From Escherichia coli (lineage in GTDB: Bacteria > Pseudomonadota > Gammaproteobacteria > Enterobacterales > Enterobacteriaceae): a stretch of DNA of 64,000 bases. A program made the translations under genes and the position numbers. The DNA lies in assembly GCF_003334355.1 (NCBI RefSeq), contig NZ_QOWP01000007.1; one strand, written 5' to 3'. This document shows positions 10,747-22,362 of this stretch, one piece after another (within the stretch, counting starts at the first letter, position 1; each line of letters opens with the position of its first letter). The notes beneath the pieces are model-generated. The model was not told where the DNA came from. It was given only the letters and a program-made list of their open reading frames with translations, and did not search any database.

Positions 10747-11961
10747 ATGAAAAATCCCTATTACCCTACCGCACTTGGGTTGTATTTTAATTACCTGGTG
10801 CATGGTATGGGCGTCATTTTGATGAGCCTGAATATGGCCTCGCTGGAGACACTTTGGCAGACTAATGCCACGGGTGTCTCGATAGTTATCTCATCGCTGG
10901 GCATTGGTCGATTAAGTGTCTTGCTTTTTGCAGGATTATTATCCGATCGCTTTGGTCGCCGCCCTTTTATCATGCTCGGGATGTGCTGCTATATGGCCTT
11001 CTTTTTTGGCATCCTGCAGACCAATAACATCATTATCGCTTATGTTTTTGGCTTTCTGGCGGGAATGGCAAACAGTTTTCTCGATGCAGGCACTTATCCC
11101 AGTTTGATGGAAGCTTTTCCACGCTCACCTGGGACAGCCAATATTTTAATTAAAGCATTTGTTTCCAGCGGACAATTTTTATTACCGCTAATCATTAGCC
11201 TGTTAGTGTGGGCTGAACTGTGGTTCGGTTGGTCCTTTATGATTGCTGCAGGCATTATGTTTATTAACGCTCTGTTTTTATACCGTTGTACGTTCCCACC
11301 CCATCCGGGTCGTCGCTTACCTGTCATAAAGAAAACCACCAGCTCTACGGAACATCGCTGTTCAATTATCGATTTAGCCAGTTATACCTTATATGGCTAT
11401 ATCTCAATGGCAACGTTTTATCTGGTTAGCCAGTGGCTGGCACAGTACGGACAATTTGTTGCAGGCATGTCATACACTATGTCGATCAAACTACTCAGTA
11501 TCTACACCGTGGGTTCGCTGCTTTGTGTATTTATTACCGCTCCACTCATTCGTAATACCGTTCGCCCAACAACATTACTGATGCTGTACACCTTTATCTC
11601 ATTTATTGCTCTGTTTACCGTCTGCCTGCATCCCACATTTTATGTGGTGATAATATTTGCTTTTGTCATTGGTTTTACCTCTGCTGGAGGTGTTGTGCAA
11701 ATTGGCCTGACGTTAATGGCTGAACGTTTCCCTTACGCTAAAGGTAAAGCTACAGGGATCTATTACAGTGCGGGCAGTATTGCGACCTTTACTATTCCGT
11801 TGATTACGGCTCATCTGTCCCAAAGAAGTATTGCCGATATTATGTGGTTCGATACCGCCATCGCTGCCATCGGTTTTTTACTGGCACTGTTTATCGGCTT
11901 ACGCAGCCGCAAAAAAACGCGGCATCACTCGCTAAAGGAAAATGTCGCTCCGGGTGGGTAA
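10747..11961 (+). CDS. ydiM: MFS transporter YdiM
   Basis: 404-aa polytopic membrane ORF. Confidence 0.9.
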   Translation: MKNPYYPTALGLYFNYLVHGMGVILMSLNMASLETLWQTNATGVSIVISSLGIGRLSVLLFAGLLSDRFGRRPFIMLGMCCYMAFFFGILQTNNIIIAYVFGFLAGMANSFLDAGTYPSLMEAFPRSPGTANILIKAFVSSGQFLLPLIISLLVWAELWFGWSFMIAAGIMFINALFLYRCTFPPHPGRRLPVIKKTTSSTEHRCSIIDLASYTLYGYISMATFYLVSQWLAQYGQFVAGMSYTMSIKLLSIYTVGSLLCVFITAPLIRNTVRPTTLLMLYTFISFIALFTVCLHPTFYVVIIFAFVIGFTSAGGVVQIGLTLMAERFPYAKGKATGIYYSAGSIATFTIPLITAHLSQRSIADIMWFDTAIAAIGFLLALFIGLRSRKKTRHHSLKENVAPGG

Positions 11962-12187
11962 TGCAATATTCTTTTCAGGTCATGCAAGATCTTACGGATA
12001 AATAACTCTTTCTGCGCTAACTAAGGAAAATCGAGATCAAAAACAAACTATGACATGCAATATTCCTGGAAACATAAACTTTATGCCATGTACCCAGGGA
12101 AAATCATCTTCAGTATAGTAATTATGTAAACCGTCGGAGAACAATACGTACGGTAACGAAATTATCTTTCAGCAAGGAGCTGTGAAA

Positions 12188-13453
12188 ATGTCTCAAAATA
12201 AGGCTTTCAGCACGCCATTTATCCTGGCTGTTCTTTGTATTTACTTCAGCTACTTCCTGCACGGCATTAGTGTTATTACGCTTGCCCAAAATATGTCATC
12301 TCTGGCGGAAAAGTTTTCCACTGACAACGCGGGCATTGCCTACTTAATTTCCGGTATCGGTTTGGGGCGATTGATCAGTATTTTATTCTTCGGTGTGATC
12401 TCCGATAAGTTTGGTCGTCGGGCGGTGATATTAATGGCAGTAATAATGTATCTGCTATTCTTCTTTGGTATTCCCGCTTGCCCGAATTTAACTCTCGCCT
12501 ACGGTCTGGCAGTGTGCGTAGGTATCGCTAACTCAGCGCTGGATACGGGTGGCTACCCCGCGCTCATGGAATGCTTTCCGAAAGCCTCTGGTTCGGCGGT
12601 CATACTGGTTAAAGCGATGGTGTCATTTGGGCAAATGTTCTACCCAATGCTGGTGAGCTATATGTTGCTCAATAATATCTGGTACGGCTATGGGCTGATT
12701 ATTCCGGGTATTCTATTTGTACTGATCACGCTGATGCTGTTGAAAAGCAAATTCCCCAGCCAGTTGGTGGACGCCAGCGTAACTAATGAATTACCGCAAA
12801 TGAACAGCAAACCGTTAGTCTGGCTGGAAGGTGTTTCATCGGTACTGTTCGGTGTAGCCGCATTCTCGACCTTTTATGTGATTGTGGTGTGGATGCCCAA
12901 ATATGCGATGGCTTTTGCTGGTATGTCAGAAGCTGAGGCATTAAAAACCATCTCTTATTACAGTATGGGCTCGTTGGTCTGTGTCTTTATTTTTGCCGCA
13001 CTACTGAAAAAAATGGTCCGGCCCATCTGGGCTAATGTATTTAACTCTGCACTGGCAACAATAACAGCAGCCATTATCTACCTGTACCCTTCTCCACTGG
13101 TGTGTAATGCCGGCGCCTTTGTTATCGGTTTCTCAGCAGCTGGCGGCATTTTACAGCTCGGTGTTTCGGTCATGTCAGAGTTTTTCCCAAAAAGCAAAGC
13201 CAAAGTCACCAGTATTTATATGATGATGGGTGGACTGGCTAACTTTGTTATTCCGCTGATTACCGGTTATCTGTCGAACATCGGCCTGCAATATATCATT
13301 GTTCTCGATTTTACTTTCGCGCTGCTGGCCCTGATTACCGCAATTATTGTTTTTATCCGCTATTACCGCGTTTTTATTATTCCTGAGAATGATGTGCGGT
13401 TTGGCGAGCGCAAATTTAGCACCCGGTTAAACACAATTAAGCATAGAGGTTAA
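12188..13453 (+). CDS. ydiN: MFS transporter YdiN
   Basis: 421 aa from [11 protein letters not shown]...; paralogous to ydiM. Confidence 0.9.
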
Positions 13454-13464
13454 AGGAGTTAATT

Positions 13465-14331
13465 ATGGATGTTACCGCAAAATACGAATTGATTGGGTTG
13501 ATGGCTTATCCTATCCGCCACAGTTTATCGCCTGAAATGCAGAATAAAGCCTTAGAAAAAGCGGGATTGCCATTTACCTATATGGCCTTCGAAGTGGATA
13601 ACGATAGCTTTCCCGGAGCAATTGAAGGATTAAAAGCTCTAAAAATGCGCGGAACTGGTGTATCAATGCCGAACAAACAACTGGCGTGTGAATATGTTGA
13701 TGAATTAACGCCAGCAGCCAAACTGGTGGGTGCCATCAACACCATCGTTAATGATGATGGCTACCTGCGCGGCTATAACACCGACGGCACGGGCCATATT
13801 CGAGCCATTAAAGAGAGCGGTTTTGATATCAAAGGCAAAACAATGGTGCTGTTAGGGGCCGGAGGTGCCTCAACGGCGATTGGCGCGCAGGGGGCAATTG
13901 AAGGTTTAAAAGAAATTAAACTCTTTAACCGTCGGGATGAGTTCTTCGATAAAGCCCTCGCCTTCGCGCAGCGGGTTAACGAAAACACCGATTGTGTCGT
14001 CACGGTTACCGATCTCGCCGATCAGCAAGCCTTTGCTGAAGCCCTGGCTTCCGCCGACATTTTAACCAATGGCACAAAAGTGGGTATGAAACCCCTTGAG
14101 AATGAATCATTGGTTAATGATATCAGTCTGTTACATCCGGGACTGCTGGTCACTGAATGCGTGTATAACCCGCATATGACGAAGTTATTGCAGCAGGCGC
14201 AACAAGCTGGTTGCAAAACGATTGATGGATACGGCATGTTGTTGTGGCAAGGGGCTGAACAGTTCACGTTATGGACTGGCAAAGATTTCCCTCTGGAATA
14301 TGTTAAACAGGTCATGGGGTTCGGTGCCTGA
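13465..14331 (+). CDS. ydiB: Quinate/shikimate dehydrogenase
   Basis: 288-aa ORF with Rossmann GAGGA motif. Confidence 0.95.
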
Positions 14332-14361
14332 CAGGCTGACCGCGTGCAGAAAGGGTAAAAA

Positions 14362-15120
14362 ATGAAAACCGTAACTGTAAAAGATCTCGTCATTGGTGCG
14401 GGCGCACCTAAAATCATCGTCTCGCTGATGGCGAAAGATATCGCCCGCGTGAAATCCGAAGCTCTCGCCTATCGTGAAGCGGACTTTGATATTCTGGAAT
14501 GGCGTGTGGACCACTTTGCCGACCTCTCCAATGTGGAGTCTGTCATGGCGGCGGCAAAAATTCTCCGTGAAACCATGCCAGAAAAACCGCTGCTGTTTAC
14601 CTTCCGCAGTGCCAAAGAAGGCGGCGAGCAGGCGATTTCCACCGAGGCTTATATTGCTCTCAATCGTGCAGCCATCGACAGCGGCCTGGTTGATATGATC
14701 GATCTGGAGTTATTTACCGGCGATGATCAGGTTAAAGAAACCGTCGCCTACGCCCACGCGCATGATGTGAAAGTTGTCATGTCCAACCATGACTTCCATA
14801 AAACGCCGGAAGCCGAAGAAATCATTGCCCGTCTGCGCAAAATGCAATCCTTCGACGCCGATATTCCTAAGATTGCGCTGATGCCGCAAAGTACCAGCGA
14901 TGTGCTGACGTTGCTTGCCGCGACCCTGGAGATGCAGGAGCAGTATGCCGATCGTCCAATCATCACGATGTCGATGGCAAAAACTGGCGTAATTTCTCGT
15001 CTGGCTGGTGAAGTATTTGGGTCGGCGGCAACTTTTGGTGCGGTAAAAAAAGCCTCTGCGCCAGGGCAAATCTCGGTAACTGATTTACGCACAGTATTAA
15101 CTATTTTACATCAGGCATAA
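14362..15120 (+). CDS. aroD: 3-dehydroquinate dehydratase type I
   Basis: 252-aa ORF. Confidence 0.95.
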
Positions 15121-15264
15121 GCAATAATATTTCGGCGGGAATATCCTCCCCCGCCGAACTAAAAAAATATATTCAACCGTATTTAATAAAAATATTTCGT
15201 GAGTCTCTGTGCGCTAATTATCCATCTGGCGTAGGGAAAATCACACCTGAATCAGGAATTAACA

Positions 15265-16860
15265 ATGAAACCTGTAAAACCACCTCGTATTAATGGACGA
15301 GTGCCGGTCCTGTCGGCACAGGAAGCGGTGAATTATATTCCCGACGAAGCAACACTTTGTGTGTTAGGCGCTGGCGGCGGTATTCTGGAAGCCACCACGT
15401 TAATTACTGCTCTTGCTGATAAATATAAACAGACTCAAACGCCACGTAATTTATCGATTATTAGTCCAACAGGGCTTGGCGATCGCGCCGACCGCGGTAT
15501 TAGTCCGCTGGCGCAAGAAGGTCTGCTGAAATGGGCATTATGCGGTCACTGGGGACAATCGCCGCGTATTTCTGATCTCGCAGAACAAAATAAAATTATT
15601 GCTTATAACTATCCACAAGGTGTACTTACACAAACCTTACGCGCCGCCGCAGCCCACCAGCCTGGTATTATTAGTGATATTGGCATCGGGACATTTGTCG
15701 ATCCACGCCAGCAAGGCGGCAAACTGAATGAAGTCACTAAAGAAGACCTGATTAAACTGGTCGAGTTTGATAACAAAGAATATCTCTATTACAAAGCGAT
15801 TGCGCCAGATATCGCCTTCATTCGCGCTACCACCTGCGACAGCGAAGGCTACGCCACTTTTGAAGATGAGGTGATGTATCTCGACGCATTGGTTATTGCC
15901 CAGGCGGTGCACAATAACGGCGGTATTGTGATGATGCAGGTGCAGAAAATGGTTAAGAAAGCCACGCTGCATCCTAAATCTGTCCGTATTCCGGGTTATC
16001 TGGTGGATATTGTGGTGGTCGATCCGGATCAAACCCAACTGTATGGCGGTGCACCGGTTAACCGCTTTATTTCTGGTGACTTCACCCTTGATGACAGTAC
16101 CAAACTTAGCCTGCCCCTAAACCAACGTAAATTAGTTGCGCGGCGCGCATTATTCGAAATGCGTAAAGGCGCGGTGGGGAATGTCGGCGTCGGTATTGCT
16201 GACGGCATTGGCCTGGTCGCCCGAGAAGAAGGTTGTGCTGATGACTTTATTCTGACGGTAGAAACAGGTCCGATTGGCGGAATTACTTCACAGGGGATCG
16301 CCTTTGGCGCGAACGTGAATACCCGTGCCATTCTGGATATGACGTCCCAGTTTGATTTTTATCACGGTGGCGGTCTGGATGTTTGTTATTTGAGTTTTGC
16401 TGAAGTCGACCAGCACGGTAACGTCGGCGTGCATAAATTCAATGGTAAAATCATGGGCACCGGTGGATTTATTGATATCAGTGCCACTTCGAAGAAAATC
16501 ATTTTCTGCGGCACATTAACTGCGGGCAGTTTAAAAACAGAAATTACCGACGGCAAATTAAATATCGTCCAGGAAGGACGGGTGAAGAAATTTATTCGGG
16601 AACTACCGGAAATTACTTTCAGCGGAAAAATCGCTCTCGAGCGAGGGCTGGATGTTCGTTATATCACTGAGCGCGCAGTATTCACGCTGAAAGAAGACGG
16701 CCTGCATTTAATCGAAATCGCCCCTGGCGTCGATTTACAAAAAGATATTCTCGACAAAATGGATTTCACCCCAGTGATTTCGCCAGAACTCAAACTGATG
16801 GACGAAAGATTATTTATCGATGCGGCGATGGGTTTTGTCCTGCCTGAAGCGGCTCATTAA
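15265..16860 (+). CDS. ydiF: Acetate CoA-transferase YdiF (fused alpha/beta)
   Basis: 531-aa ORF. Confidence 0.9.
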   Translation: MKPVKPPRINGRVPVLSAQEAVNYIPDEATLCVLGAGGGILEATTLITALADKYKQTQTPRNLSIISPTGLGDRADRGISPLAQEGLLKWALCGHWGQSPRISDLAEQNKIIAYNYPQGVLTQTLRAAAAHQPGIISDIGIGTFVDPRQQGGKLNEVTKEDLIKLVEFDNKEYLYYKAIAPDIAFIRATTCDSEGYATFEDEVMYLDALVIAQAVHNNGGIVMMQVQKMVKKATLHPKSVRIPGYLVDIVVVDPDQTQLYGGAPVNRFISGDFTLDDSTKLSLPLNQRKLVARRALFEMRKGAVGNVGVGIADGIGLVAREEGCADDFILTVETGPIGGITSQGIAFGANVNTRAILDMTSQFDFYHGGGLDVCYLSFAEVDQHGNVGVHKFNGKIMGTGGFIDISATSKKIIFCGTLTAGSLKTEITDGKLNIVQEGRVKKFIRELPEITFSGKIALERGLDVRYITERAVFTLKEDGLHLIEIAPGVDLQKDILDKMDFTPVISPELKLMDERLFIDAAMGFVLPEAAH

Positions 16861-16873
16861 CAGGAGTATAATG

Positions 16874-18025
16874 ATGGATTTTTCTTTAACTGAAGAACAA
16901 GAACTGCTGCTGGCCAGTATTCGCGAACTGATTACGACTAACTTTCCGGAAGAGTATTTCCGCACCTGCGATCAAAACGGGACATATCCGCGTGAGTTTA
17001 TGCGGGCGCTGGCGGATAACGGTATTTCCATGCTTGGCGTGCCGGAAGAATTTGGTGGTATCCCTGCGGATTACGTCACCCAAATGCTGGCGCTGATGGA
17101 AGTGTCAAAATGCGGTGCTCCGGCATTTTTAATTACCAACGGTCAATGTATTCACAGTATGCGCCGTTTCGGTTCTGCAGAGCAGCTACGTAAAACGGCA
17201 GAAAGCACCCTGGAAACCGGCGACCCCGCCTATGCCCTGGCGTTGACGGAACCAGGTGCTGGCTCAGATAACAACAGTGCCACCACCACTTACACGCGTA
17301 AAAACGGCAAGGTTTACATCAACGGACAGAAAACCTTTATTACCGGTGCGAAAGAGTACCCGTATATGCTGGTGTTGGCGCGCGATCCGCAACCGAAAGA
17401 TCCCAAAAAAGCCTTCACCCTGTGGTGGGTCGACTCCAGTAAGCCCGGCATTAAGATTAACCCGCTGCATAAAATCGGCTGACATATGCTCAGCACCTGC
17501 GAAGTCTATCTCGACAACGTGGAAGTTGAAGAGAGCGACATGGTGGGCGAAGAAGGAATGGGTTTCCTCAATGTGATGTACAACTTTGAGATGGAGCGCC
17601 TGATCAACGCCGCGCGCAGCACCGGCTTTGCCGAATGCGCCTTTGAAGATGCCGCCCGCTATGCCAACCAACGTATCGCTTTTGGTAAGCCCATTGGTCA
17701 TAACCAGATGATCCAGGAAAAACTGGCGCTGATGGCGATTAAGATTGACAACATGCGCAACATGGTGCTGAAAGTGGCATGGCAAGCCGATCAGCATCAG
17801 TCACTGCGCACCAGCGCGGCGCTGGCAAAACTGTATTGCGCACGTACCGCAATGGAAGTCATTGATGATGCGATTCAAATCATGGGCGGTCTGGGCTATA
17901 CCGATGAAGCGCGCGTCTCCCGCTTCTGGCGTGATGTCCGTTGTGAACGTATCGGCGGCGGTACAGACGAAATTATGATTTACGTAGCAGGTCGGCAGAT
18001 CCTGAAAGACTATCAGAACAAATAA
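16874..18025 (+). pseudogene. ydiO: Acyl-CoA dehydrogenase YdiO, interrupted by an in-frame TGA at 17483-17485 (codon 204 of 383)
   Basis: Two same-frame ORFs (to 17482; from 17486) that together give exactly 383 codons; acyl-CoA dehydrogenase motifs on both sides of the stop. Confidence 0.8.
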
Positions 18026-18029
18026 TCTG

Positions 18030-18065
18030 CAGGCGGCGCAGCTTCTTAACAAACTGCGCCGCCAG
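18030..18065. terminator. Bidirectional hairpin between convergent ydiO and ydiP
   Basis: GGCGGCGCAG...CTGCGCCGCC inverted repeat with T-rich flank. Confidence 0.5.
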
Positions 18066-18067
18066 AT

Positions 18068-18979
18068 TTATCCAACAAGACTTACCGGTTGAGGAAATTC
18101 AGATAGGATTTCTTGTTCCGCAAAACAGTTTTTAAATTGCCTGCGGTAATCGCTGGGTGAACAGCCGACATGGCGCAAAAACAGTTTGCCAAAGTGATCG
18201 ACATTTTCATAACCCACACGCCAGGAGATCTCTGCCTGTGATAATTCAGTATTAGTGAGTAACCATTTCGCTTCCGTCATACGCCGTTGAATAACATAGT
18301 TAATTGGGGAAATACGATACTCTTTGGTAAATTCATGGCAAATATAACTGACGCTGGCACGAAATTTTTTCGATAACTGTTCTAAAGTGATTTTTTCGCG
18401 ATAATTATTATTCAGATAGAAAAGAATATCTTTTATCAGAACATCTTTTTTAATATACCCCTACTCCGAACGATAAGCATTTTTAAAGTTTTCGTAGTAA
18501 AGAATTGCTAATGTATAGGCAAATGCATCCCATAACGAAGATGTTTGGCTATTTTTACTTTGCGGCAAAATCACACTTAGCTCATTAAATAAGGTTTTAA
18601 TGACTTCTTTTCCCTGCCCCGCGGCAATTACCGGACAAGAATGCGGTTGCAGTAGATGATTTTCCTCAGCCCCCTGAAACTGAAAGCCGTACAGCGCACA
18701 GGTACACGTCGTTGCCGGATCGTTAACGTCAGAGGCCACCGCATGCAGCCTGCCGCGTTCTATCACCACTATATCATCTGCATGCGCGACATATAACGAA
18801 GAATCGATGGTAAACCTTGCCACCCCTTTCTTGACGTAAATCAGCTCGGTTTCATTGTCATGAACGTGATGTCCAGACTCCCATTTTGGATCATCGCTAA
18901 ATGCAAAACGTGAAAGCCGTGGCGTTTTACCAGCGACAAACAGCGTTTCACTGGCATTATCAAAACAGCGTTGATACAT
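18068..18979 (-). pseudogene. ydiP: AraC-family regulator YdiP, interrupted by an in-frame TAG at 18461-18463 (codon 173 of 303)
   Basis: N-terminal cupin part (172 aa) and C-terminal HTH part are in the same frame; hand translation of 18281-18460 is open and AraC-like, so a single stop is the only lesion. Confidence 0.75.
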
Positions 18980-19294
18980 GACAACCTCCCTATTCCATGA
19001 GCAAGCAAAAACAATATATGCCGGATAAAATACGGCGTGTATTGCGGTTATACAACCGCGTTTAGCGAGAGCTAAACAAGATTATTTACACTGAATGCAA
19101 GATTGTACGGTCATGGAATAACTATATTGCCGCAAATTGCACTTTTGTTTTAGCGATCGCATTTTTTTTGCAAGATTGTTGGCAAGGAAAACAGCTTGCT
19201 CCGTCGAAAACCCCGCACCGCTATCGCACACTATTTTCAGGCCATTTTTACCTTCCATCGGAGATGGTTCCGTATGCGACTCACAGGAGAAATC

Positions 19295-20059
19295 ATGAAA
19301 ATAATAACCTGCTTTAAGCTGGTGCCTGAAGAACAGGACATTGTTGTCACTCCAGAATACACCCTGAATTTCGACAATGCCGACGCCAAAATCAGCCAGT
19401 TCGATCTCAATGCCATTGAAGCTGCAAGCCAGCTTGCAACAGATGACGATGAGATAGCCGCGCTGACCGTTGGCGGCTCATTGTTGCAGAACTCGAAAGT
19501 GCGCAAAGACGTGCTATCCCGCGGGCCGCACAGCCTGTATATGGTGCAGGATGCACAACTTGAGCATGCACTGCCTCTCGATACCGCAAAAGCGCTGGCG
19601 GCAGCAGTTGAAAAGATCGGCTTCGATTTACTGATCTTTGGTGAAGGTTCCGGCGACCTTTATGCCCAGCAGGTTGGCTTGCTGGTCGGAGAAATTCTGC
19701 AACTTCCGGTGATTAATGCAGTGAGTGCTATTCAGCGTCAGGGCAATACACTGGTGATTGAACGCACGCTTGAAGATGACGTTGAAGTTATTGAACTCTC
19801 TGTTCCAGCCGTGCTCTGCGTCACCTCCGATATTAACGTGCCACGCATTCCTTCGATGAAAGCCATTCTCGGCGCGGGTAAAAAACCGGTAAATCAGTGG
19901 CAGGCAAGTGATATTGGCTGGAGCCAGAGCGCACCACTTGCTGAACTGACCGGCATTCGCGTACCGCCGCAAACAGAACGTAAGCACATCATTCTCGATA
20001 ACGATTCGCCGGAGGCCATTGCCGAGCTGGCGGAACATCTGAAGAAAGCCCTGAACTGA
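19295..20059 (+). CDS. ydiQ: Electron transfer flavoprotein beta-like subunit YdiQ
   Basis: 254 aa from MKIITCFKLVPEEQD... Confidence 0.9.
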   Translation: MKIITCFKLVPEEQDIVVTPEYTLNFDNADAKISQFDLNAIEAASQLATDDDEIAALTVGGSLLQNSKVRKDVLSRGPHSLYMVQDAQLEHALPLDTAKALAAAVEKIGFDLLIFGEGSGDLYAQQVGLLVGEILQLPVINAVSAIQRQGNTLVIERTLEDDVEVIELSVPAVLCVTSDINVPRIPSMKAILGAGKKPVNQWQASDIGWSQSAPLAELTGIRVPPQTERKHIILDNDSPEAIAELAEHLKKALN

Positions 20060-20078
20060 AGCCTACGGAGAAGAAACG

Positions 20079-21017
20079 ATGAGTCAATTAAACAGCGTCT
20101 GGGTCTTTAGCGATAATCCTGAACGTTATGCTGAACTGTTTGGCGGCGCTCAGCAATGGGGCCAACAGGTGTATGCCATTGTACAAAATACCGACCAGGC
20201 GCAGGCAGTTATGCCTTATGGTCCAAAATGTATTTATGTTCTTGAGCAAAACGACGCGCTGCAACGCACTGAAAATTACGCCGAAAGCATTGCTGCTCTG
20301 CTGAAAGATAAACACCCCGCTATGTTGCTACTGGCCGCGACGAAACGTGGTAAAGCTCTGGCAGCACGGTTAAGTGTGCAACTGAATGCGGCGCTGGTGA
20401 ACGATGCCGCGGCGGTGGATATTGTCGATGGTCACATTTGCGCCGAACACCGGATGTATGGCGGGTTAGCGTTCGCTCAGGAAAAGATCAACAGCTCGCT
20501 GGCGATCATTACCCTTGCACCCGGTGTTCAGGAACCGTGCGCCAGTGATAACTCTCATCAGTGCCCGACAGAAACGGTACCTTATGTTGCTCCGCGTCAT
20601 GAAATTCTCTGTCGCGAGCGCCGTGCGAAAGCGGCAAGCAGCGTGGACCTGAGCAAAGCAAAACGTGTGGTTGGCGTCGGTCGTGGTCTGGCAGCGCAGG
20701 ATGACCTGAAAATGGTCCACGAACTGGCGGCGGTGCTGAATGCTGAAGTCGGCTGTTCACGTCCAATTGCCGAAGGCGAGAACTGGATGGAGCGTGAACG
20801 TTATATCGGTGTCTCCGGCGTGTTGCTGAAATCCGATCTCTACCTGACGCTGGGGATCTCCGGGCAGATCCAACATATGGTTGGCGGCAACGGCGCAAAA
20901 GTGATTGTCGCCATCAATAAAGATAAAAATGCGCCAATCTTCAACTATGCCGACTACGGTCTGGTGGGCGATATCTACAAAGTCGTCCCTGCCCTGATTA
21001 GCCAGTTGAGCCGCTAA
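20079..21017 (+). CDS. ydiR: Electron transfer flavoprotein alpha-like subunit YdiR
   Basis: 312-aa ORF. Confidence 0.9.
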   Translation: MSQLNSVWVFSDNPERYAELFGGAQQWGQQVYAIVQNTDQAQAVMPYGPKCIYVLEQNDALQRTENYAESIAALLKDKHPAMLLLAATKRGKALAARLSVQLNAALVNDAAAVDIVDGHICAEHRMYGGLAFAQEKINSSLAIITLAPGVQEPCASDNSHQCPTETVPYVAPRHEILCRERRAKAASSVDLSKAKRVVGVGRGLAAQDDLKMVHELAAVLNAEVGCSRPIAEGENWMERERYIGVSGVLLKSDLYLTLGISGQIQHMVGGNGAKVIVAINKDKNAPIFNYADYGLVGDIYKVVPALISQLSR

Positions 21018-21072
21018 TTCCCCTTTCAACCACATCTCCCGCTGTAAACGCAGCGGGAAGGGAGCATAACGC

Positions 21073-22362
21073 ATGTCGGATGACAAATTTGATGCCATTG
21101 TGGTCGGTGCGGGCGTTGCTGGTAGCGTTGCCGCACTGGTCATGGCACGAGCCGGGCTGGATGTCCTGGTGATAGAACGCGGCGACAGTGCCGGATGTAA
21201 AAACATGACCGGCGGGCGCCTTTATGCCCACACACTTGAAGCAATCATTCCAGGCTTTGCAGCATCAGCGCCGGTAGAACGCAAGGTCACACGCGAGAAA
21301 ATCTCCTTCTTAACCGAAGAGAGCGCCGTTACCCTCGATTTTCACCGCGAGCAACCAGATGTTCCGCAACACGCATCTTATACCGTATTGCGTAATCGTC
21401 TGGACCCGTGGTTGATGGAACATGCCGAGCAGGCGGGCGCACAGTTTATCCCGGGAGTTCGCGTCGATGCGCTGGTTCGTGAAGGAAACAAGGTAACTGG
21501 CGTGCAGGCTGGGGATGATATTCTCGAAGCGAATGTGGTGATTCTGGCTGATGGCGTTAACTCGATGCTTGGCCGCTCGCTGGGAATGGTTCCCGCTTCC
21601 GATCCGCATCATTACGCTGTTGGTGTTAAAGAGGTTATTGGCCTCACACCAGAACAGATCAATGATCGCTTTAATATTACGGGCGAGGAAGGTGCCGCCT
21701 GGCTGTTTGCCGGTTCCCCTTCTGACGGCCTGATGGGTGGCGGATTCCTCTATACCAACAACGATTCCGTATCGTTGGGGCTGGTTTGTGGATTGGGTGA
21801 TATCACCCATGCGCAAAAAAGCGTGCCGCAAATGCTGGAAGATTTTAAACAACACCCCGCCATTCGCCCACTAATTAGCGGCGGCAAACTGCTTGAATAT
21901 TCCGCGCATATGGTGCCAGAAGGCGGTCTGGCAATGGTGCCGCAGCTGGTTAACGATGGCGTGATGATCGTTGGTGACGCCGCAGGCTTCTGCCTGAATT
22001 TGGGTTTTACAGTTCGTGGCATGGATTTAGCCATTGCATCGGCTCAGGCTGCCGCCACAACGGTGATCGCCGCCAAAGAACGCGAGGATTTCTCCGCCAG
22101 CAGTCTGGCGCAATACAAACGAGAGCTGGAACAAAGTTGTGTTATGCGCGATATGCAGCATTTTCGCAAGATCCCGGCGCTGATGGAAAACCCGCGCCTG
22201 TTTAGCCAATACCCACGAATGGTAGCCGACATCATGAACGAGATGTTCACCATTGACGGCAAACCAAACCAGCCGGTACGCAAAATGATCATGGGACACG
22301 CGAAGAAAATTGGGCTGATCAACTTGCTGAAAGATGGCATTAAGGGAGCAACCGCGCTATGA
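21073..22362 (+). CDS. ydiS: FAD-dependent oxidoreductase YdiS (FixC-like)
   Basis: 429-aa ORF with N-terminal GxGxxG dinucleotide motif (VVGAGVAGS). Confidence 0.9.
   Translation: MSDDKFDAIVVGAGVAGSVAALVMARAGLDVLVIERGDSAGCKNMTGGRLYAHTLEAIIPGFAASAPVERKVTREKISFLTEESAVTLDFHREQPDVPQHASYTVLRNRLDPWLMEHAEQAGAQFIPGVRVDALVREGNKVTGVQAGDDILEANVVILADGVNSMLGRSLGMVPASDPHHYAVGVKEVIGLTPEQINDRFNITGEEGAAWLFAGSPSDGLMGGGFLYTNNDSVSLGLVCGLGDITHAQKSVPQMLEDFKQHPAIRPLISGGKLLEYSAHMVPEGGLAMVPQLVNDGVMIVGDAAGFCLNLGFTVRGMDLAIASAQAAATTVIAAKEREDFSASSLAQYKRELEQSCVMRDMQHFRKIPALMENPRLFSQYPRMVADIMNEMFTIDGKPNQPVRKMIMGHAKKIGLINLLKDGIKGATAL

Follow-up and report, generated by a model that had tools for sequence, protein, structure and literature searches.

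A lineage-specific nonsense mutation in ydiO of Escherichia coli as a probable step in the decay of the ydi locus

The acyl-CoA dehydrogenase gene ydiO is interrupted by an in-frame TGA in the window, the 64,000-nt stretch of E. coli DNA analysed here (contig NZ_QOWP01000007.1; Table 1). With high confidence, we regard this TGA as a simple loss-of-function nonsense mutation and as one step in the decay of the locus. Lineage-specific nonsense pseudogenes are a known kind of event, and this exact allele is already public. A small sublineage of phylogroup-A-like E. coli acquired a G:C-to-A:T transition at 17482 that converted Trp203 (TGG) to TGA, and release factor 2 would stop translation after residue 202. 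The predicted product would retain the helical N-terminal domain and, except for its last strand, the middle beta domain, and would lack the whole C-terminal helical domain. The regulator gene ydiP was knocked out first and the enzyme gene ydiO later, as expected for the piecemeal decay of a dispensable locus, here the proposed anaerobic fatty-acid oxidation cluster.

Table 1. Features of the ydiF-fadK region (coordinates are positions in the window)
Feature	Coordinates	Strand	Remarks
ydiF, acyl-CoA:acetate/3-ketoacid CoA-transferase	15265..16860	+	intact, 531 aa; upstream of ydiO on the same strand
ydiO, acyl-CoA dehydrogenase gene, here a pseudogene	16874..18025	+	383 codons and stop, interrupted at codon 203
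Remaining N-terminal ORF of ydiO, 202 aa	16874..17482	+	N domain and truncated middle domain; Pfam N and M only
Premature TGA in ydiO	17480..17482	+	ancestral TGG (Trp203); mutated base 17482 (G to A); from comparison with HS, PSS-12, L020 and L022
Downstream in-frame ORF of ydiO, 179 aa	17486..18025	+	C-terminal domain; ATG 3 nt after the stop; given as a separate ORF by gene callers
Terminator-like G+C hairpin	18027..18041	-	between the convergent ydiO and ydiP
ydiP, AraC-family regulator, pseudogene	18068..18979	-	convergent with ydiO; 912 nt, collinear with the intact 303-aa ydiP, one in-frame TAG
Premature TAG in ydiP	18461..18463	-	ancestral CAG (Gln173); G to A at 18463 on the + strand
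ydiQ, ydiR, ydiS, ydiT and fadK	19295..24355	+	all full length; the PSS-12 counterparts, aligned without gaps, are annotated as intact

The stop codon, its ancestral state and the truncated product

The ydiO frame extends from the ATG at 16874 to the TAA at 18023-18025 and contains one internal stop only. A sequence-only reading had already reported an in-frame TGA in an otherwise open 383-codon ydiO, and its peptide ...LHKIG*HMLSTCEVYLDNVEVEE... was reproduced exactly by translation. Its coordinates, however, were shifted by one codon. The stop had been placed at 17483-17485, which is the next codon, CAT (His), and the affected base at 17484-17485, whereas the alignment puts the changed base at 17482. 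The codon number given there, 204, holds when counted from an upstream ATG at 16871 but not from the RefSeq start (ATG at 16874, MDFSL), from which the stop is codon 203.

Alignment to a reference ydiO, suggested in that reading as a check, was run against E. coli HS. The two genes are identical at 1151 of 1152 nt, and the sole mismatch is position 17482, the third base of codon 203, where TGG has become TGA. Because the only mismatch of this near-perfect match lies in the stop codon, the ydiO pattern is not a chance ORF. With Trp203 restored, YdiO matches the UniRef sequence YDIO_ECOLI exactly. Codon 203 is TGG in HS, in PSS-12 and in the compared loci L020 and L022, and TGA in L014, L017 and L021, which share the same background. 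PSS-12 (human faeces, Ecuador) is the closest complete genome, with 17 SNPs over ~39 kb, and its ydiO and ydiP are annotated as intact. These comparisons establish the base change and its ancestral state, and a TGG-to-TGA change, proposed earlier as the simplest explanation, is borne out by both HS and PSS-12. The intact ydiO of K-12 and HS is the same gene in the same place, between ydiF and ydiP, and differs from that of the window by this G-to-A change. Orthology is further supported by full-length near-identity to the reference and by the conserved neighbourhood, and the stop derives from a sense codon that is still intact in close relatives, as in other nonsense pseudogenes.

In the restored YdiO, the Pfam N, M and C domains of acyl-CoA dehydrogenases cover residues 6-107, 121-216 and 228-376, respectively, and the three reside in one polypeptide only when codon 203 is read as Trp. 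The stop removes the end of the middle domain (its last strand) and the entire C-terminal domain. The restored protein can be aligned over its full length to many solved acyl-CoA dehydrogenases; the three best solved homologues have Gln, Leu and Leu opposite Trp203, and Trp at this position is therefore specific to YdiO. The expectation that homologues usually carry Trp or a hydrophobic residue here thus holds only approximately. In acyl-CoA dehydrogenases, the catalytic base resides in the C-terminal domain, which also forms the tetramer interface and takes part in the FAD/substrate pocket. Since this domain is lost, the 202-residue fragment is expected to be inactive. Enzyme activity has presumably been lost, and the loss was presumably neutral.

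The gene order ydiF, ydiO, ydiP (convergent), ydiQRST and fadK agrees with the PSS-12 annotation. No gene follows ydiO on its strand before the convergent ydiP, and the stop therefore has no downstream gene on which polarity could act. The view that the neighbouring ydiQRST and fadK were left intact was confirmed by the gapless alignment to PSS-12, the sole change being a derived missense substitution in fadK (A161T; G to A at 23189, codon 161) specific to the lineage of the window. The nonsense mutation in ydiP had been overlooked in the sequence-only reading.

Locus decay and recurrent nonsense alleles

The ydiP stop is present in the samples with the ydiO stop and also occurs together with an intact ydiO (TGG) in L020 and L022, the two samples of the same background (SRR30883905 and SRR18173635; 2-3 SNPs in 5.4 kb), and the ydiP lesion is therefore older than the ydiO stop. 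At least four further backgrounds, all diverged, also carry the ydiP Q173 stop (L013, L015, L016/L019 and L018). The lineage of the window acquired four substitutions within 10874-23482, namely one intergenic change, ydiO W203*, ydiP Q173* and fadK A161T.

Decay of the region is also apparent elsewhere. HS (L001, NC_009800.1, 7393-11163), a closely related phylogroup-A-like commensal that differs from the window by 5 SNPs in 7.4 kb, is likewise losing function at the ydi locus, but by other lesions: ydiO is intact, ydiF is frameshifted, IS1A is inserted in ydiP, ppsA lies directly next to it and ydiQRST-fadK is missing. The window, in contrast, has kept ydiQRST-fadK, and its lesions are point nonsense mutations in ydiO and ydiP. 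Insertions of IS903B and IS1 in ydiO were found in two complete genomes. Other E. coli loci have further broken genes near ydiO, namely ydiB split into 147 and 81 aa (L010, 2595-3460), ydiF split into 328 and 107 aa (L019, 6120-7715), ydiP shortened to 215 aa (L006, 7460-8107) and a fadK call of 424 aa rather than 548 (L005, 11985-12609).

Recurrence was seen at codon 203 itself. The ten loci retrieved with the 202-residue product represent at least four backgrounds that are 1-2% apart, and the stops at this codon comprise TGA on three backgrounds and TAG on two. L010 carries TAG and, outside this codon, matches one of the TGA backgrounds. The W203 stops thus have at least five independent origins. 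Those outside the lineage of the window share with it a stop at the same codon, but their backgrounds differ from it by 1-2% and the stop is either TGA or TAG.

A hotspot at codon 203 was tested by looking up the products of nine other single-transition nonsense changes of ydiO in public data. All nine were present, on 2-90 contigs each compared with 59 for W203*: Q104* (58 contigs), Q152* (46), Q173* (2), W184* (43), W185* (64), Q266* (71), Q278* (90), W303* (52, including Shigella boydii ATCC 9905, EFW56199.1) and W352* (39). The intact YdiO protein (WP_000347850.1) was on at least 1000 contigs. Given these counts, codon 203 is unremarkable, and a mutational hotspot or site-specific selection at this codon was rejected; on inspection, the codon does not lie in a CCWGG (Dcm) motif either. 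The other natural alleles (W303*, Q278*, Q266*, W185*, W184* and Q104*) resemble that of the window in being single-transition stops on tens of contigs with "partial" or pseudogene annotation, and differ from it in the codon hit. W203 stops recur because E. coli has been sampled very deeply and ydiO is dispensable. The sequence-only reading had named a TGA conserved in reference alleles as an observation that would speak against loss; this was checked, and the recurrence instead reflects independent TGA and TAG events at a frequency typical of ydiO nonsense alleles.

These data bear on whether positive selection, and not drift to fixation, removed the YdiO pathway in this lineage, a possibility that we consider unlikely. 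Of the four substitutions specific to the lineage in 12.6 kb, three hit ydiO, ydiP and fadK, two of these being nonsense, as adaptive inactivation would predict, but such counts are too small for a test. The repeated stops at Trp203 of ydiO (at least five origins) and at Gln173 of ydiP (several backgrounds), as well as the degradation of the locus by other routes in HS and other strains, point in the same direction. On the other hand, full-length ydiO DNA is retained in 5,358 of 5,426 complete genomes (aligned over at least 80%), those listed being annotated as intact. Moreover, the individual nonsense alleles are rare (tens of contigs versus more than 1000 intact) and no site is favoured, which fits mutation and drift in a deeply sampled species.

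A mutagenised or mutator strain was considered because of the two G-to-A nonsense changes 1 kb apart. It was rejected, since the window differs from PSS-12 by only 17 SNPs of mixed types over ~39 kb; the derivation of many of those within 10874-23482 on the PSS-12 side also counts against it. The PSS-12-specific coding changes that were polarised in this interval were nonsynonymous in four of four cases (ydiN Y230F, ydiF A208V, ydiO M71I and G90S). In PSS-12 (L012, NZ_AP027697.1, 12361-13574), an IS1203 absent from the window lies between rprA and ydiL.

Elsewhere in the window, selO (- strand) is split by a 2,985-bp insertion at 30116-33100 that is absent from PSS-12, leaving fragments at 29486-30100 and 33028-33915. 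The insertion contains an ISL3-family transposase (30174-31451) and a passenger permease (31464-32498) that is distantly related to the SO_0444/SaoE-type Cu/Zn efflux families, below the curated cut-offs, and it is flanked by the 8-bp direct repeat CAAATAAA (30108-30115 and 33101-33108). Two adjacent ORFs on the + strand, 45765-46238 (157 aa) and 46249-47664 (471 aa), lie between thrS and the ydiY side. An NCBIfam search of this pair gave no match; from its position, we take it to be probably arpB, an interrupted pseudogene in K-12.

Translation at the stop and authenticity of the allele

A leaky hypomorph rather than a null allele, with a few percent of the enzyme keeping the pathway partly alive, was given a small chance. 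The stop is followed by C, with which the ancestral His204 codon begins and which is common to all alleles. Because the context is UGA-C and the ancestral residue is Trp, any read-through by Trp-tRNA would regenerate wild-type YdiO. K-12 has a weak RF2 variant, and read-through values from K-12 may exceed those of natural isolates. Among the stop codons of E. coli, UGA leaks most. In K-12 reporters, misreading of UGA by Trp-tRNA(Trp), in competition with RF2, was ~2% at 37 C and 4% at 25 C (PMC10570021), and C after the stop weakens termination in E. coli (PMC5289835). Such leakiness is a property of any TGG-to-TGA mutation before C and not a designed feature. Traces of full-length YdiO may still be made, and the allele may be a strong hypomorph instead of an absolute null. 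If the allele were leaky, a "pseudogene" of this TGG-to-TGA type would be phenotypically buffered, with an enzyme level that varies with growth state. A nearby suppressor tRNA was rejected, as a search of the window gave no tRNA genes.

The chance is slimmer still that ydiO has become a split gene, in which reinitiation at the ATG at 17486 would yield 202-aa and 179-aa pieces that assemble into an active enzyme. The TGA-CAT-ATG layout fits termination-reinitiation, only residues 203-204 would be lost, and both ORFs are reported by gene callers. However, direct reading of AAAATCGGCTGACAT upstream of this ATG revealed no AGGAGG-like motif and hence no Shine-Dalgarno sequence, and the ATG is merely the ancestral Met205 codon. 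In addition, the break lies inside the middle beta domain and not at a domain boundary, and nonsense alleles at many other codons, which have no such ATG, are equally frequent.

A sequencing or assembly error, with G as the true base at 17482 and ydiO intact, would be expected to look like a one-base difference from close relatives. Furthermore, of the 5,363 complete E. coli genomes that match a 71-base query centred on the stop, not one contains it unchanged (none of the complete RefSeq E. coli genomes had the identical 71-mer), although a TGA allele with another nearby SNP would escape this search. Against an error, the TGA is present with flanks identical to the window over 5.4-12.6 kb in SRR3951466 and SRR3823860, read-derived Logan assemblies of different runs, and in the NCBI assembly GCA_014464935.1, one of which may be the window's own source. 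The 202-aa product also occurs on 59 contigs (WP_286040009.1 / MDL5428728.1, "acyl-CoA dehydrogenase family protein, partial"). The identical allele and flanks in three public assemblies or runs establish that the TGA is inherited and make a sequencing error very unlikely.

Programmed recoding, with the UGA read as selenocysteine or serving as a conserved read-through site, is the least credible alternative. To our knowledge, the only selenoproteins of E. coli are the three formate dehydrogenases. The ydiO stop resembles those of fdhF, fdnG and fdoG in being an in-frame UGA within an oxidoreductase gene, but differs from their UGA-Sec sites in having no SECIS hairpin, an ancestral Trp, no conservation of the stop and TAG in other lineages. 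In favour of recoding, Sec is encoded by UGA, no termination context is leakier than UGA-C, and a near-cognate Trp-tRNA would give back the ancestral residue. Nevertheless, the ancestral residue is Trp and the homologues have Gln or Leu, never Cys or Sec; the closest relatives carry TGG, the stop being confined to a sublineage; and codon 203 is TAG, which cannot encode Sec, in L002, L007 and L010.

Structure and flanking sequence agree with this. An Rfam scan of 16500-18500 (E<=10) gave no match overlapping the site; as far as we know, Rfam may have no dedicated bacterial SECIS model, and the weight lies on the fold and the comparative evidence. The 61 nt starting from the UGA fold with an MFE of -15.1 kcal/mol (z -0.89), and 31 of 200 shuffled sequences fold as well. 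The earlier impression that no SECIS-like hairpin was obvious is thus upheld by the scan and by folding of the downstream 61 nt. Over 30 nt on either side of the codon, the TGG, TGA and TAG alleles do not differ, indicating that nothing evolved around the stop. Considering the TAG alleles elsewhere and the same downstream sequence in TGG alleles, recoding is excluded.

Meaning for the ydi locus

Simple loss of function remains the preferred reading of the ydiO stop. [quoted passage not shown] In the strain of the window, ydiO and ydiP should be flagged as pseudogenes in the annotation. For a strain with this stop, a YdiO-dependent enoyl-CoA reductase or anaerobic beta-oxidation step should not be assumed, for instance when metabolic models are built or reverse beta-oxidation is engineered. 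Beyond annotation, the mutation has little significance.

At the current sampling depth, practically every possible nonsense allele of such a gene is already public. With so nearly complete a set, recurrence at one codon alone is not evidence of a hotspot, selection or recoding. The locus illustrates the piecemeal erosion of a poorly characterised, dispensable gene cluster in E. coli.
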